From contig OZ024742.1 of NCBI GenBank assembly GCA_964016885.1, forward strand, positions 78,554,001-78,618,000: DNA of 64,000 nt, written 5' to 3'. Made by a program: the position numbers and the translations under genes. The notes under the pieces are model-generated. The model saw only the letters and a program-made list of their open reading frames with translations, ran no database searches and was not told where the DNA came from. Each line of letters starts with the position of its first letter. Position 1 is the stretch's first letter. The stretch comes from Eledone cirrhosa. Taxonomy: Eukaryota. Of this stretch, positions 5,512 to 63,256 are shown one piece after another.

Positions 5512-6110
5512 AAACAGAAAAAATGAAACGAAATTTCATTTCTCACTCTTAGTACGGCTGTTACTTAAATATAAGTATGTATACGTACATACATATATGT
5601 ATACAGACGTACAGTAGTATGTATATATATATACATACATGCACAGATATATATATGTACGTATGGATTCACCGAACATTCATTATAATGCTCAGTGTGT
5701 TTGTAAACAAACATCCCAAATTAAGCCGTACAGTGTCTAGCAACCATCATTGCTCATTTGTTCAACCCTGACACAGGAACGACGCACCAGTTTCAAGCTT
5801 ATTAGCTATCGTCAGCAATGCACACCTTCCTGCCAGATGATTGAACGCCTGAAAGCATATACTTTCCTTATGCATATTAACAGCTGAGCAGCCCAATTTG
5901 CATATCGAGTGAGTTAATCGGCCGGGGTACCGAAAACGATAAACGGAAAAAATGAAACGGAATTTCATTTCTCACTCTTAGTACGGCTGTTACTTAAATA
6001 TAAGTATGTATACGTACATACATATATGTATACAGACGTACAGTAGTATGTATATATACATACATGCACACATATATATATATACGTATGGATTCACCGA
6101 ACATTCATTA
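5512..6110. repeat. Partial tandem repeat, ~429 bp period, containing a hammerhead-like motif
   Basis: 5512-5685 recurs at 5941-6110; flanked by (TA)n-type repeats. Confidence 0.8.
5785..5815 (-). ncRNA. Degenerate minimal hammerhead motif
   Basis: Minus strand CTGACGA-t-agct-aata-agct-t-GAAA-ctgg-TG; G at position 17 and weak stem I. Confidence 0.45.
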
Positions 6111-6762
6111 TATATATATATATGTGTGCATGTATGTATATATACATACTACTGTACGTCTGTATACATATATGTATGTACGTATACATACTTATATATA
6201 TATGTATATAAACACACACATATACATGTGTGTGCATATATATATATATATATATGCACACACATGTATATGTATATATATATATATACACACACATATA
6301 TACATACACATATATATAAATACACACACGCACATATATATTTTTGTGTGCATGTACACTTTACAATTTAATAAAAATAATTAGAAATTCAATGAGAAAG
6401 ATTTCAACAATCATTAAAATAAAACAAACAATGTCTGTATTTGTACAAACACAACAGAAATGCCATTTATATAATACATGAATATGTGTGTGTGTTCTAG
6501 GTATTTAATGTATGTAATAAAATGAAATGAAAATACTAAATTCAATATATTAATGATGTGTATCTGAAATTAAGAATTATGTATGGTGGGAAACGGTTAT
6601 ATATATTAGGGGTTTCATGTATTCTCAAAGTACCAGTGATGTATACTAAACTGTTTGATAACTGGTGATTGAAACTAGAGTGTGAACTTGGGTTTGTGGA
6701 ATACAGAATCCCTGCAATAATATGGTGCTCCTCAGATGTGAAAAGGAAAAAAGATTTTAACT

Positions 6763-12000: not shown

Positions 12001-12567
12001 TATTAACCCTTTTATATGATTTTGTTTAAAATTTCCTTCATGCAGAGATGTGTTATATGAGAGAATACTAATGAAAGGAATACAGAAATGTCTCAGCAAA
12101 TGATATTCATCTGTTTGCAGACATTTCACTAAGAGTCACAGCACAGACAGTTTCACAAACACTTCCTGCCAGATATTTTCTTTGGATTGCTTCTGGTCTC
12201 ACAAAGAACAATCCCAGAATCCCAACACCCTCAAATGTTTGGATTATTTTAAGAAATAATATTCCCTAGTGTATGTCTACTTAGTTTTAAACATAAGATA
12301 TGCGATAAATCCAGACACACACACAAATGTATAAGGCAGTCAGATATTCAAAGCTCTAATGCTACCTGCTTCTTGACTGAAACATATGTAAATGAATTAA
12401 ATAATATATTAATATATTAAACCTTGGTTATATATATATACACATATATATATTATCATTATTATAATTATTATTATACATAATTAAATTTGTCATGAAT
12501 AAACATAGCATATCAATGAAAAGAGATCATGAAAAGATCTTATTCAGAGAAGTAAATATATATAAAG

Positions 12568-12747
12568 AGTATCTTATACAAATAACTGTAAGGTAGATAA
12601 AGCAGAATTCTCTAGGGATATACTCACATTGAAGCAACTTAAATATAGGAAGCCTACTCAGGCTCCTTATATTTTGGTTGCTTGAATGTGAGTATATCCC
12701 TAGGAAATTCTGCTTTATCTACCCTTCAGTGATTTGTATAAGATACT
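12568..12747. repeat. Long hairpin, ~88 bp arms with a 4 nt loop
   Basis: 12568-12655 pairs with 12660-12747, scattered mismatches. Confidence 0.9.
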
Positions 12748-13020
12748 TTCTCTCTGTATGTATGTATATATATATGTGTGTATATACCTATCTATCCTAT
12801 ATATTTATATATATGTATGTATAAACACACACATATATATATATATAGAGAGATAGATAGATAAATATACACGGGTGTGTATGATTGTGTATAGAAGATT
12901 ATATTAATAAGAGGAATTCCAACTTTGTCTGATTTACTCGTTTTATTTGCAATCCTTTAAAATTTTATAATGGTATTATAATGAAATAGTATGATAGAAT
13001 ATTAAATGTTAAGTGATAAT

Positions 13021-55444: not shown

Positions 55445-56347
55445 ATAATTGTTTCTACTTTAGGCACAAGGCCAGCAATTACCCAGTACATTACTAGTAT
55501 TTTATTTTATCGACCCCGTAAGGATGAAAGGCAAAGTTAACCTTGGCGGGATTTGAACTCAGAATGGCAAGGGCCGTAACTCAATGCATCAAAGCATAAT
55601 AATAATAATAATAATGATGGTTTCTGATTGAGGCACAAGGCCAACAATTTTTGTGGAAAGGGAAAGTTGATTAAATCAACCCCAGTGTGTTACTGGTACT
55701 TTACTTTATCAACCAAGTAAGGATGAAAGGCAAAGCTAACCTCAGCGGGATTTGAGGTTAGCTTTGCCTTTCATCCTTACAGGGTTGATAAAGTAAAGCC
55801 CCAGTAATGCACTGGGGTAATTGCTGGCCTTGTGCCAAAAGTAGAAACATTATTATTATTATTATTGCTGTTGTTTCCATTTATATTTCTATTCTTCCAT
55901 TATTTTAAACATTTTTAATAATAATTGTTTCTACTTTTGGCACAAGGGCAGCAATTATCCCAGTGTATTACTGGTACTTTATTTTATCGACCCCGTAAGG
56001 ATGAAAGGCAAAGCTAGCCTCGGCGGGATTTGAACTCAGAGCGTAAAGGGCCATAACTCTATGCTGCAAAGCATGGCGTCCGACCCTCTACTGATACTGC
56101 CAATCCACATTTTTAATAATAATGATAATAATAATGGTTTCTGAATTAGGCACAATGCCAGCAATTTTTGGAGAAAGGGAAAGTTGATTAAATCAACCCC
56201 AGTCTGTTACTTTATTTTATCAAACCTGTAAGGTTGAAAAGCAAAGCTAACCTTGGCGTTACCTGAACTCAGAATGTAAAGGGATGCAACTACATGCTGC
56301 TAAGCATGTTGTCCGATGCTCTAACCCCTCTGCCAATTCACTGCCCT
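55445..56347 (-). mobile_element. Cluster of family 2 SINEs including a local inversion
   Basis: Four minus-strand copies plus a plus-strand partial copy at 55755-55850. Confidence 0.8.
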
Positions 56348-57325: not shown

Positions 57326-57450
57326 ATAATAAATTCAAAGGGTATATATATATAAATTAGACAAAGTCATAGATACATATATGCGTTTGGCAACCATTCA
57401 CGGTGTGGCTCAATGAAGAATTAATTAAATAATTATTAATCAGAGCAATT

Positions 57451-57700
57451 TATAAAAATGTAAGTCCAAAGAATCATTAGATAAAATATATACAGTATTT
57501 CCTCTCCCAATCAGTATAAATTAACCACACAAAAAATCATTTAAACGAGGCTATAAGATTAAAATGTACTATTTCTTCATAAGTAGATTTTAATCTTATA
57601 GCCTCGTTTAAATGATATTTTGTGTGGTTAATTTATACTGATTAGGAGAGGAAATACTGTATATATTTTATCTAATGATTCTTTGGAGTTACATTTTATA
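57451..57700. repeat. Long hairpin, ~120 bp arms with an 11 nt loop
   Basis: 57451-57570 pairs with 57582-57700; (TA)n at 57343-57354 and 57697-57719. Confidence 0.92.
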
Positions 57701-58492: not shown

Positions 58493-59884
58493 CATATATA
58501 TATATATACATACACATACATAGGCATATGTCAGTTTATTTCATGCTACTCCATATTGACAGAATTTAAAGCAAATGATAAAATATACAAAAACATTAAT
58601 TTGAAAATAGTGAGTTTACTGACAGAGCTAGAGAGTGAGAAAAGCATTTGTGTAGTTGTTTTTCATGAAAACAAAGAATATTTTCTAGGTTAACATGTGG
58701 GGGATCCATTTCAAGAGATTCTAAAAATGGTGGGATGGGCACTATTCTGCATGTGTGTTCACGTGCATGTGTGTGTATATGTCTGTGTGTAGTGTAGTGT
58801 GGTGTGGAGGCTAACATTGTATTTATTTTTTTATTTTATTTTAGAGCCAAACATATCTGAAACAATGATATTGCAATGTTAAAGAATTCTGTCTTGGAAT
58901 TTGGTTTTAACCCATCTGCTCTCTCCACTCACATCCATCACCATTTATTTATATTATTATCATTATTAGTGTTATTATTATCACCGTCATCATTGAGTAA
59001 CATGAAATGAGGAAAGCAGTGTCATATTTTTTTTTTTTCAAAATATGAAGACAGGACCTACTAACATATCAAATATGCCTGGGTTAGTGAGAGGCAGATT
59101 TGTTAATTTGAAATAACCAACCACCTGCCACCAAAAAAGAGGAAGAAGGAGGAGGAGGGGGAAAGAAGAAGAAGGAGGAAGGGGAAAGAAGAAGGAGGAG
59201 GAAGCCAAAAATAACAACCACTACCACTATTACTGTTACCAACAGTAGTCTCCAAATATGTGGCACCTATCAATAATTCTTCATATTTTCGGTGTTTCTA
59301 TATTCTTCCCTACTTTTCCACTATTATATTTAGCGAAGTTTACTTTGCCTTTCATCCTTACGGGGTCGATAAAATAAAGTACCAGTAATGCACTGGGTAA
59401 TTTCTGGCCTTGTGCCAAAAGTAGAAACAATTATATTTAGTTTGTTATTTCTACAAGTATGTCTAATTATTGTCCTGTTTTGACGTTAGTACCTTTTATT
59501 TTCTATTCAGGTTTATGATTCTATTGATCTCCTATATGGAAGTCTGGTCTGAGGACAAATACTTAGCAAATGTCTCTAGTAAAAACGAAAAAGAAAACAA
59601 AAAACAAACAGATCAAAGATTAACCGTTTCATTACAATAATTCTAATATACAGCCCGTGATTTTGAAATAATTTTGAAAATACTCAAGAATTTGGAGACA
59701 TTTTGTAATTGAAGTAACTTTTGGTGTTTAGAACATAACTTAATGATTCTTACATAAAATTATAATGGATAGTGTTATATATATATATATATTTTGTTTC
59801 TGAATTTGATACCAGTGAGCTGGGACTCCTACTTAAACTTACCTATAATAATGATTATCTAGATACGTATGACCTTAGCAACCT

Positions 59885-60652
59885 GTGCCCTACAAGACCA
59901 GCAAGAGGCAGACCACCTACCATTATCTCATTGGCCAAGAAAACCCACGCAGAGCCATACGGACCCCCGAAAACCACGATGAACGAAAAAAAATGATTGC
60001 ACATGCGGTGGGGGCCAGTATAAAACTAACCCTTAAGGAACATATGTTCAAATTTAATGGAAAAACATATGCCCAAGAGGAGGGAGCAGCCATTGGTGTT
60101 AGCATTGCAGGTGACATAGCTAACCTATTCATGGTATGGTGGAACAATAAACTTAAACTTAAAGAACAATTAGAAGACAGCAACCTCTTAACCCTGATAA
60201 TGTACTCCCGCTACGCTGATGATATAAACATCGTAGTAAAAACACCCCCACTAGAGAACAGTCAGGAATTAGAGAAAAACACCATGGAAAGCATCCAGCT
60301 AATAGCTAACTCCATCCACCAGAGTATTAGAGTTACTATAGACTACCCAAGCAAACACCCCAACCATCGATTACCTGTACTAGACACAGAGCTCTGGTTA
60401 GAAACCATTAATAACAAAAAACAAATCCGCCATTCCCATTATGCCAAACCCATGACTTCCAAATATCTGATCCACCGAAACTCAGCTGTTTCAGATTACA
60501 CCAAAATCAACATACTGATTGCGGATTTGGTACGAGTGATGAGAAACGTGTCCCGCATGTGCAACCCCAAAGAACTAGAGAGACACATACAACACTTCAT
60601 CCACCATATGCAGTTCTCTGGTCACAATCAGAGAGATAAAATCAGAGTATAA
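59885..60652 (+). pseudogene. Penelope-type reverse transcriptase fragment
   Basis: FKFNGKTYAQEEGAAIGVSIAGDIANLFM, RYADD, LPVLD, YAKP motifs; frameshifted on both sides. Confidence 0.88.
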
Positions 60653-60782
60653 AGAGGATCCAGAACCAAATGGTAAATAATGATACAAATGGGACCTGCC
60701 CCTTGTATAGGAGCAAATTTTGGAATAGAATAAGGTTAATAGAATAAACTCATGGTATGATAGCAATAAATACCAGAGTGTA

Positions 60783-61285
60783 ATGTTCATCAATACAACC
60801 CCTAGAGGTGAATTAGCTTACAAATTTAGAAGGGCCCTAGATAAACTTAAACTTAAGATTAAGATAGTAGAAAGACCAGGTACCTCCATAAAAACACTTA
60901 TTAGCAATACATACACTTTTCAAAGACCTCCCTGTATAGATAAGAAATGCATAATCTGTAAACTAAGCCCCCATATTAAATGTAAAACTAGAAATGTAGT
61001 ATATAGCATAAGATGTACTGAATGACAATGTAAATATAAGAATATAGTGTACATAGGTGAGACAGCTCGTAGTATAGAACGGTTAAATGAACACTGGAGA
61101 GAGCTTCAAGATAAAAAAGAATCATCAATACTTCACCAACATGCTAAAATAGAACATAAGGGCAAATTAGAGAACATAGAAATAAAATAGAATCTACACA
61201 CAGAAAAGACGCAATGTTTAGACAAATCACAGAGGCAATAAACATAAATGAACTCCAACCAAAATTAAATAGAAAACATGAATGG
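60783..61285 (+). pseudogene. Penelope GIY-YIG endonuclease with Cys-rich linker; in-frame TGA and later frameshift
   Basis: CIDKKCIIC...CKTRNVVYSIRCTE*QCKYKNIVYIGETARSIERLNEH. Confidence 0.82.
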
Positions 61286-61510
61286 AATAGCAACATCACA
61301 ACTTACAATTAAGGACAAAATGAAAACACACACACACATAGAACAAACAACCAACCAGTAACATGTAAATAAACAAATAAATAAACAAATAAAAACACAC
61401 ACAGACACCCGGATGTAACACATACGCAAACTAAGCACACAACACACACAAAAACAAGATGGTGTAAGACAGAATAAAGGAGAGGCACAAAACAAAGAAA
61501 AGAATCCCCA

Positions 61511-61553
61511 GTCACTGAAGAGGTCACAGAATGTATGACGAAAGAACTTTGAC
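61511..61553 (+). ncRNA. Minimal type I hammerhead in the Penelope 3' region
   Basis: gtca-CTGAAGA-g-gtca-cagaatgta-tgac-GAAA-gaac-TT-tgac. Confidence 0.7.
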
Positions 61554-61853
61554 AATATATGAACAACCGTCCGGTTGTGGAACCAACCAACCAACCGGAA
61601 ATTTATAAATTCTTAAATTTATAATAAATTGTAGTGAAAGCAACTGGTGTGTATGTTTCTTATTGGCAACATGACCCTCCCAAAGTATAACAATATATAT
61701 ATATATATATATATATTAGAAAGTGAGGTTTTTTTTACAAAATGAAAAATAACCGAGGTGTCCTACACGAGTGGAAGTATAAAGAAAAAGGGATGAAATT
61801 GAAAATGCAACTGAAGTCTTATTTTTTTTTTAAATATATATATTTATTTGGTC

Positions 61854-61891
61854 CCTTTACCGGTTTCGCAGTTCTTCTGCTTTTCAAAAGG
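61854..61891 (-). ncRNA. Minimal hammerhead, U3-A8 variant
   Basis: Mirror image of 61955-61992. Confidence 0.75.
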
Positions 61892-61954
61892 TGAGTTGAG
61901 ATGGAGGGTCTGTGGTTTTTCTGAGAAAAACCACAGACCCTCCATCTCAACTCA

Positions 61955-61992
61955 CCTTTTGAAAAGCAGAAGAACTGCGAAACCGGTAAAGG
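61955..61992 (+). ncRNA. Minimal hammerhead, U3-A8 variant
   Basis: cctt-TTGAAAA-gcag-aagaa-ctgc-GAAA-ccgg-TA-aagg: stems I and II fully paired, ACCGGT palindromic stem III, GUA site. Confidence 0.78.
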
Positions 61993-62061
61993 AACCAAAT
62001 AAATATATATATTTTTTAAAAAAATAAGACTTCAGTTGCATTTTCAATTTCATCCCTTTTT

Positions 62062-62138
<77 letters not shown>

Positions 62139-63256
62139 TACATATATAAAAAAACATTTTAAAACAAATAGTTTTGTATCATGTAACTAGAGTCAGTTTT
62201 AAAAAGTTTAGTATCAGAAGAGTTAAGGCAAATAACAATCTCATAGAGAGTTGTGGTTAGTATATGTTGTAGTGCACGTGAGCACTGTACACAATAGTTT
62301 TCATTATATTATATTAAGGTTGATTTTTCATCCTTACAGGGTCGATAAAATAAAGTATCAGTCACGCACTGGGGTTGATTTAATCGACTTTCCCCTCCCA
62401 CAAAATTGCTGGCCTTGTGCCTATATAAGAAACCATTATATTAAGATTGATTTTTTAAATTTACATTGTTTCTTAAAACATTTTTTGCAGTATATGTTGA
62501 GAATCACCAGAAAATGTTATCTAATAAAAATAAAACACATTACTAAAGGGAACAGAAAAGGAAGAGAAAAGAAAATGAAAAGGAGAAAAAAGAAGGATCA
62601 AGCAGTGAAAAAAAGGGAGAGGGAGGTGGACAGCCATTGCACATAAATCTGAGCAGTGCCTCTGCACACAAAAACAAAAGACCTGGTAACAAAGTGAATT
62701 CTCTTATAAGCACTCAAGGGACATTTGTTGGCATTGCCCCAGACAATGGAATTAAGACTGTCATCCTAAAACAGAGGATGTTAAGAGCTGGAACAACTGC
62801 CACACTGTGTCTCATCCAACACTTGAACAATCATGCTACTTAATTTTATCAGCTTTGAAATGTAGAAAACAAAGTTGGACATAGCAGTGTTTGGACTCAG
62901 AGAGCATAGAAAACCAGAATAGATAATATGAGGCATTTTGTCGTATGCTCTAACAACTTTGCCAATTCACTGCCATTTGTTGTTTTATTTTGTATTTTGC
63001 CTTTATACCATATTCAAGATGTTTTTGTGACCAAATTATTCAGGATTGGTGGGGTACCTAAGTCACCCCTGGGTCGTCCACCCGCTATAGGAGAATTTAT
63101 TTTGTTATATTTATGCATAGTTTATTTTATATTTTTTATATCTTCATTGTTTTAGTCTTGCCATTGTGCACTTTTACTCGACCTTATTGTAAACCCCCAC
63201 TGTTCCTGTCTTTGTATTGTCCCCTACATGTTGGCCCTTGTGGCTAATAAATGAAA

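Follow-up and report, generated by a model that had tools for sequence, protein, structure and literature searches.

A hammerhead-bearing palindrome in the Eledone cirrhosa genome as a head-to-head pLTR pair of a Penelope-like element, probably formed by twin priming

The window, i.e., the whole 64-kb stretch of Eledone cirrhosa DNA analysed here, contains a palindrome of two 145-nt arms that are 97% complementary (141/145 paired) and separated by 1 nt. An inverted-repeat scan of the window identified this palindrome (61778-62068) as its longest short-range inverted repeat. The four arm mismatches consist of unit position 70 and a 3-nt shift at a T/A run. The palindrome is flanked by (TA)n on the left and right, and an extension of 61 bp is present on the left side only. 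The two ends are asymmetric, and they lie in (TA)n, in which a target-site duplication cannot be read. The arms centred on 61923, the one-sided extension, and the (TA)n flanks, all reported by the first-pass annotation, were confirmed from the sequence. Arms were numbered from their inner end, with positions 1-145 for the arm, 146-206 for the extension, and 0 and below for the bases that lie upstream in the parent element described below. The parent reads on through ATATATA, so that the true end of the extension falls at 61710-61717; this point would represent the outer reverse transcriptase (RT) start site, and the end of the right arm would represent the inner one. In the window, both arms end 6-7 nt short of the inferred RNA 5' end. 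The features of the locus are listed in Table 1.

Table 1. Features of the palindrome locus (positions in the window)
Feature	Position	Strand	Basis
Neighbouring Penelope-like element, decayed and of a different family; C3-G8 hammerhead at 61511-61553	59879..61692	+	28% aa identity to parent RT
Left (TA)n target tract, shared with the 3' end of the neighbouring Penelope	61693..61716	.	sequence
61-nt PLE 'tail'; follows the pLTR in the parent and enters the first ORF	61717..61777	-	L076, L152; (TA)n loose ends
Left arm; pLTR positions 1-145 in sense orientation on the - strand, followed by the tail	61778..61922	-	parent comparison
Hammerhead motif, minimal type I, U3-A8; predicted cut 3' of 61858	61854..61891	-	motif scan
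Junction base; minor centre class (14 exact copies)	61923..61923	+	pattern counts
Right arm; tail-less, pLTR positions 1-145 in sense orientation on the + strand	61924..62068	+	parent comparison
Hammerhead motif, second copy; predicted cut 3' of 61988	61955..61992	+	motif scan
(TA)n target tract, right	62065..62148	.	sequence

An assembly artefact produced by hairpin reads can be regarded as extremely improbable. No contig from four runs spans the whole palindrome stretch, a gap that in itself proves nothing, but the contigs of a separate short-read run hold head-to-head joints of the palindrome's kind at 61922. Private differences between the arms, the asymmetric tail, and the many centre types found at 1,493 loci also speak against an artefact.

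The best matches between the palindrome and the neighbouring Penelope were at most 23 nt long, or 28 nt at 75% identity, and none was located in the neighbour's hammerhead, which bears out the earlier statement that no sequence is shared with it. A link between the two elements was rejected, as the neighbour has 28% aa identity to the parent RT, no meaningful similarity was found, and their common feature is the (TA)n ends. The 3' end of the neighbour's family was observed within about 1.5 kb of palindrome-family copies at several unrelated loci (L004, L050, L051, L044, and L038), probably because both families target (TA)n. A second palindrome, with 116-nt arms, a one-sided extension of about 100 nt, and (TA)n flanks, is located at 57346-57697 and belongs to another repeat family, for which 3,641 candidates were recorded, including copies with inverted short arms at varied spacing; the window scan found no canonical hammerhead in it. 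Further short-range inverted repeats with 66-103 nt per arm are present at 669-910, 1072-1350, 5995-6200, 12553-12762, and 55679-56021, several of them beside simple repeats, and the last is a SINE-like repeat common in the window.

Hammerhead cores with stems I and II were searched for on both strands of the whole window using a relaxed scan that allowed U3-A8. Three motifs only were returned: the U3-A8 cores at +61955 and -61891, corresponding to the two outward-facing hammerheads of the first-pass annotation, and the neighbour's C3-G8 core at +61511. Rfam gave 0 matches at the gathering score in the whole window, so the hammerhead call rests on motif anatomy and not on the Rfam model. Both palindrome motifs have the core positions 3-9, G12-A15.1, and U16.1-H17, the paired positions 3-8, a 4-bp stem I, a 4-bp stem II with G10.1-C11.1, and a palindromic stem III, which is the anatomy of the minimal type I hammerhead of the Penelope kind that had been proposed. 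Stem III is predicted to form a 6-bp self-duplex (-10.3 kcal/mol), which would allow a dimer. Dimeric, slow cleavage by minimal hammerheads is covered by the review PMC6765202 in its accessible part. The U3-A8 pair is described as active in vitro in PMC3088659, and the tolerance of this pair assumed earlier agrees with the accessible text of that paper and of PMC4209133.

The hammerhead core has 15,184 exact matches in the genome (control, 1). Among the first 100 of them, U3-A8 was found in 99 and C3 in 0, and no sister family combining C3-G8 with this stem III was seen. The core was also uniform across 271 aligned arms; as the repeat is young, this uniformity is no proof of selection. In an older subfamily, stem I is shortened to 3 bp. 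The 5' ends of arms did not accumulate at the hammerhead cut site: 253 arms started near it versus 144 in a control window, an excess not taken as a signal since CpG and AT content were unequal between the two patterns. The inserted copies cross the cut site of the putative ribozyme and derive from uncut RNA. The minimum free energy of the palindrome was about -239 kcal/mol, with one long duplex predicted on either strand. Because the whole element is predicted as one duplex and the antisense arm comes first in read-through RNA, masking of the ribozyme is likely; such RNA would form a 145-bp duplex hiding it. The dsRNA hairpin suggested by the first-pass annotation is thus upheld as a prediction. 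Its further suggestion of a switch between hairpin and cleavage found no support, given the missing pile-up at the cut site.

The E. cirrhosa genome contains a full-length RT/GIY-YIG element whose pLTRs match the window's arms at 96-97% identity, and the palindrome is almost certainly a pLTR pair of a Penelope-like element (PLE). The parent is a 4.7-kb autonomous element containing RT, a CxxC linker, and GIY-YIG, and it has no other match in the window beyond the arms and the extension. In the copy L076, the arm occurs as a direct repeat ~4.9 kb apart, and the 61-nt extension runs straight into the first ORF. The arms are inverted around a truncated body in L061 and L080, and L152 has both direct and inverted pLTRs. 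The RVT_1 domain was detected in L061 with E=1.1e-6 and 28.9 bits, just below the cut-off of 29.6, and the GIY-YIG domain in L076 with E=3.5e-5, above the cut-off; L152 encodes RT and GIY-YIG in one frame, in keeping with the C-terminal GIY-YIG endonuclease that follows the RT in EN+ PLEs. The motifs GLKF, DKG, YLDD, CX4CxxC, and CCHH were read in a 768-aa frame (P0121). The closest named matches of the parent protein were from Octopus bimaculoides (74% over 60% of the query).

The features of EN+ PLEs named in the accessible text of PMC8557442 (zinc finger, GxKF, and DKG) were used for comparison. The 768-aa frame contains GxKF, DKG, and a CCHH zinc finger, two Cys of which lie between GIY and YIG. 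Direct and inverted pLTRs and 5' truncation, also EN+ PLE traits, were found in L076, L152, L061, L080, and 26 long pairs. A tail is present as well; at 61-68 nt it is longer than the 30-40 bp reported for EN+ PLEs in the text available. The CX4CxxC linker agrees with the CX2-5CxxC linker of the Neptune/Nematis type, and (TA)n is found at nearly all ends, as in that type; by the linker motif alone, the parent is assigned as putatively Neptune-type. The first ORF and the RT/EN ORF of the parent overlap in the -1 frame in 7/7 copies covering the junction (L152 (1824-1990), L061, L076, L150, L151, L155, and L194), with a T-TTT-TTA heptamer inside the overlap, which makes a programmed frameshift likely. 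The SINE-like repeat that makes up 55679-56021 of the window also interrupts the 3' UTR in several copies of the parent, and it was found in one copy of the family behind the second palindrome (L150, L151, L147, and L206).

A DNA search of the species' own genome (3.0 Gb) yielded 964 candidates, and all 40 of the 40 scored matched across the centre. An arm 26-mer had 6,107 exact matches in the genome versus none for the reversed control, which rules out chance. Short palindromes, defined by two arms no more than 30 nt apart, were found at 1,493 loci, and a 28-mer from just upstream of the arm matched 2,486 times. The many copies anticipated by the first-pass annotation are thus present. The tiny non-autonomous element that it envisaged is not, because the arms and extension belong to the pLTR and tail of an autonomous parent. 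Its converse possibility, a one-off truncation product, comes near to what was found, except that the product is recurrent. No head-to-tail neighbours at monomer spacing were found among the first 100 of the 6,107 arm matches, the neighbours being head-to-head; tandem head-to-tail monomers each with a hammerhead, as in retrozymes, were not what was observed, nor was a single inherited internal structure following lineage, as in SINE- or MITE-like repeats. Discovery of the RT/GIY-YIG parent led to the abandonment of three other identities, namely a Helitron, a MITE, and a parvovirus-like hairpin. According to the accessible text of 10.64898/2026.07.22.740005 and PMC7229834, non-LTR retrozymes are likewise short, non-coding, equipped with a type I hammerhead, and derived from PLE pLTRs; their head-to-tail tandems are thought to use circular RNA, whereas the present copies are head-to-head and contiguous with coding copies.

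The distribution of tails was determined in a short set comprising 44 of the first 50 listed short palindromes in order of position, two of which represent one segmental duplicate. A tail was present on exactly one arm in 43/44 and on neither in 1/44. The best-hit copies had one tail in 25/26 and two tails in 1/26 (L030). Palindromes without any tail number one or two. For the long pairs, 27 loci were entered and 26 scored (L154 was missed). Exactly one tail was found in 25/26, located on the longer arm in 11 pairs and on the shorter arm in 11, with 3 ties. Solo arms lacked a tail in 10/27 cases compared with 1/44 palindromes with none (Fisher p=1.5e-4), where the solo count was obtained by merging two lists by hand, with three duplicates dropped and one borderline case, and where solo arms may be former palindromes with one arm missing, a possibility that would weaken the comparison. 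A tail-to-tail pair of tailed solo arms was observed at L071:4996-5479.

The centres of the short set comprised 21 different strings in 44 copies. They had 0-2 unpaired nt in 24/44 copies and a 4-nt spacer in 5/44, and 37/44 reached -4 or beyond on one side. The common centres are found with either subfamily and with the tail on either side. Some centres contain short templated repeats, and those in L068, L077, and L051 are typical of end-joining. The centre, which had been put forward as the mark of a family, does not serve as one: that of the window has 14 exact copies among the 1,493 short palindromes, and centres cross subfamilies and orientations.

These data also bear on the idea of a small non-autonomous hairpin element that is transcribed whole, mobilised in trans, and switches between duplex and self-cleaving states. 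In favour of such an element, the 1,493 short palindromes are of similar size and a few centres recur often, and the accessible literature provides both internal promoters in other Penelope elements (PMC2377424) and pLTRs that suffice for mobilisation in trans (PMC3846280). However, the centres are too diverse, with the window's own in so few copies, and follow neither haplotype nor tail side; copy lengths grade without a break into full length; short copies lack the TATA box; and a duplex would need unwinding for reverse transcription. The hairpin element is therefore considered a quite improbable source of the palindromes.

The arm starts were counted in 100 position-ordered arms: 44 were located at -9 to -3, 13 at -2 to +7, 5 at -40 to -10, and 38 further up, the search anchor hiding arms that begin further down. 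In total, 57/100 arms began at -9 to +7. Position -6 is 30 nt after TATAAAA, and from this spacing the short arms likely stop at the transcription start. A base other than the native C before position -6 was found in 928 matches; a hand count among the first 100 gave G in 47, T in 33, and A in 20. At 30 loci inspected, 6/12 G junctions were, in the analyst's reading, not explained by flank or slippage, and these lend modest support to a copied cap. In short-read contigs from two runs of one study, the summed depth rose several-fold at the arm-start point. Both runs had (TA)n loose ends at positions 143 and 211, with a fall of >100-fold beyond the tail.

The two arms of a pair share a haplotype. 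Across 97 pairs, discordance at polymorphic sites was found in 56/658 comparisons (8.5%), including 22 centre artefacts at -5 and -2, versus 36% in shuffled arm pairs (lowest shuffle, 28%). Fully called pairs agreed at all five main sites in 69/84 cases, and a two-base subfamily marker was on one arm only in 3/84. The three discordant pairs may reflect two templates, conversion, or a mutation hotspot. In L072, L137, and L140, the marker in stem I differs, the tail-less arm being of the older type and the tailed arm of the younger type (3/3). Rare variants were found 121 times on one arm only and 13 times on both arms, including one in the window copy, which indicates that the arms were not homogenised later. 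The pairs might instead owe their form or orientation to later events, with inverted repeats recombining or being repaired against each other once inserted, in which case the tail side and centre would be uninformative. Long palindromes are unstable, and the 13 rare variants common to both arms fit such exchange. The 121 variants confined to one arm put exchange far from saturation, yet the tail side is fully random, and kb-long spacers have the same tail symmetry. With arms that were not homogenised, later flipping would be limited, and as an origin of the pairs it is very unlikely.

In LINE-1 twin priming, the other target strand also acts as a primer, so that one RNA yields an additional cDNA, and the resulting inversion is joined by microhomology. 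The two LINE-1 cDNAs represent different RNA segments, with variable sites, whereas here the same segment and two fixed sites would be involved. The palindrome is proposed to be a head-to-head pLTR pair made in one insertion by twin priming, with a probability of roughly 0.6. The RNA would start ~7 nt upstream of the arm, 30 nt after the TATA box. The RT/GIY-YIG protein, probably a dimer, would cut both strands of the (TA)n tract, and one target strand would prime a cDNA at the pLTR end (145) and the other at the tail end (~206-213), both being copied from the same uncut RNA or from RNAs of one locus. With priming at the 5' pLTR, both cDNAs would run off the RNA 5' end after 150-220 nt, giving a double 'strong-stop'; with priming at the 3' pLTR, long, unequal inverted arms would result. 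The two cDNA 3' ends would then be trimmed and joined by 0-2 nt microhomology or short templated inserts, and each strand would be filled in on the other. The short copy, without TATA box and ORF, is likely a dead-end by-product.

Parallels to these steps were described in vitro for Poseidon PAc, a PLE of Anolis carolinensis (PMC11167929, main text). It is predicted to be dimeric, cuts and extends both strands of an AT-rich target, uses uncut RNA, and starts reverse transcription at two internal sites bracketing the tail. It differs in belonging to the Penelope/Poseidon clade without the linker Zn finger and in having its start sites inside the ORF, and its main text gives no model for inverted pLTRs. 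The target strands showed no start-site difference in vitro, whereas the genome requires one start site of each kind per event, and twin priming leaves the enforcement of this pairing unexplained. Copying one RNA twice also needs strand displacement, from which a longer tail-less arm would be expected; this is not seen in the 11:11 split. An early impression from the first long pairs, that the longer arm comes from the leading RT, was given up when the larger set gave 11:11.

Head-to-head junctions have been read in print as self-priming (PMC3846280; Arkhipova 2013), as has the tail (PMC8557442), so far as the accessible texts go. In the version considered here, a cDNA, or an antisense RNA as proposed by Arkhipova (2013), folds back and copies itself into a free hairpin with the tail on both strands; ahead of integration, the endonuclease makes staggered cuts, at the pLTR end of one strand and at the tail end of its complement. 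This would account for the haplotypes common to both arms, for the single tail of each event, and for the 11:11 split, and fold-back is compatible with the 4-nt-spacer centres and with long junctions at native near-palindromes (L146 and L159). It is disfavoured by the 24/44 centres whose 0-2 unpaired nt are too tight for a loop, and by the commonest centre, in which both arms extend almost all the way to the inferred RNA start. With an antisense template, a halt 30 nt after a sense TATA box would have no explanation, and the tail ends match the RT start sites reported in vitro (PMC11167929, main text). Self-priming from a free hairpin is accordingly held to be unlikely. The target-primed form of fold-back is rejected, as copying by fold-back cannot supply a tail missing from the template and the tail is on the shorter arm in half of the untied long pairs (11/22); it also fails because almost no palindromes are tail-less though tail-less solo arms are common. 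Taken together, one tail per pair, the independence of the tail from arm length, near-zero spacers, and the shared haplotype point against target-primed fold-back and for twin priming. No twin-priming model for PLE inverted repeats was found in the literature searched, mostly main texts outside subscription journals.

As an object, the palindrome is ordinary for PLEs. Inverted 5'-truncated pLTRs and a one-end tail are standard PLE features in the accessible parts of PMC8557442, PMC3846280, PMC2377424, and PMC8969392, and the first three describe for EN+ PLEs an inverted 5'-truncated copy at the 5' end, a one-end tail, (TA)n targets, and junction palindromes. In contrast to those elements, the insertion here is reduced to two pLTRs in about 1,500 cases, and truncation piles up at the inferred RNA start. 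U3-A8 minimal hammerheads in PLEs and opposite-strand pairs of them 100-700 bp apart are reported from Schistosoma in the accessible text of PMC4209133. There, the Cercyon PLE of Schistosoma mansoni resembles the present family in its U3-A8 core (about 1,300 there), its 4-5 bp helix I, and its opposite-strand dual motifs. It represents a different PLE family and host; here, the 4-bp helix II is without the extra base after A9 and stem III carries a 4-nt palindromic insert, and the part of that paper available contains no analysis of palindromes. Inverted pLTRs, tails, U3-A8, and opposite-strand hammerhead pairs are thus already published, and what is new is the population anatomy of the short and long pLTR pairs.

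The hammerhead motif is carried in some 15,000 copies, the inserted ones coming from uncut RNA. It is conceivable, though improbable, that the palindromic stem III of the uncut hammerhead pairs two RNA copies for the dimer, in the manner of a retroviral dimerisation signal. The family supplies the genome with about 1,500 hairpins, nearly perfect over 145 bp, which might, speculatively, be linked to RNA editing. A broader reading, to which about even odds are given, is that PLEs insert by obligate twin priming, in which one dimer would use both strands and two fixed sites of one RNA; the inverted pLTR with its one-sided tail would then be two joined cDNAs, and the short palindromes would be double strong-stops that map the RNA 5' end and the start sites. 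The building of tandem and inverted PLE insertions is named as an open question in the accessible text of PMC8557442, and the steps after priming are left unvalidated in the main text of PMC11167929. The existing in vitro PLE system can test twin priming directly. PLEs are telomerase-related retroelements, for which this family offers thousands of young, simple insertion events, and twin priming, if true, would explain how they build their inverted ends.
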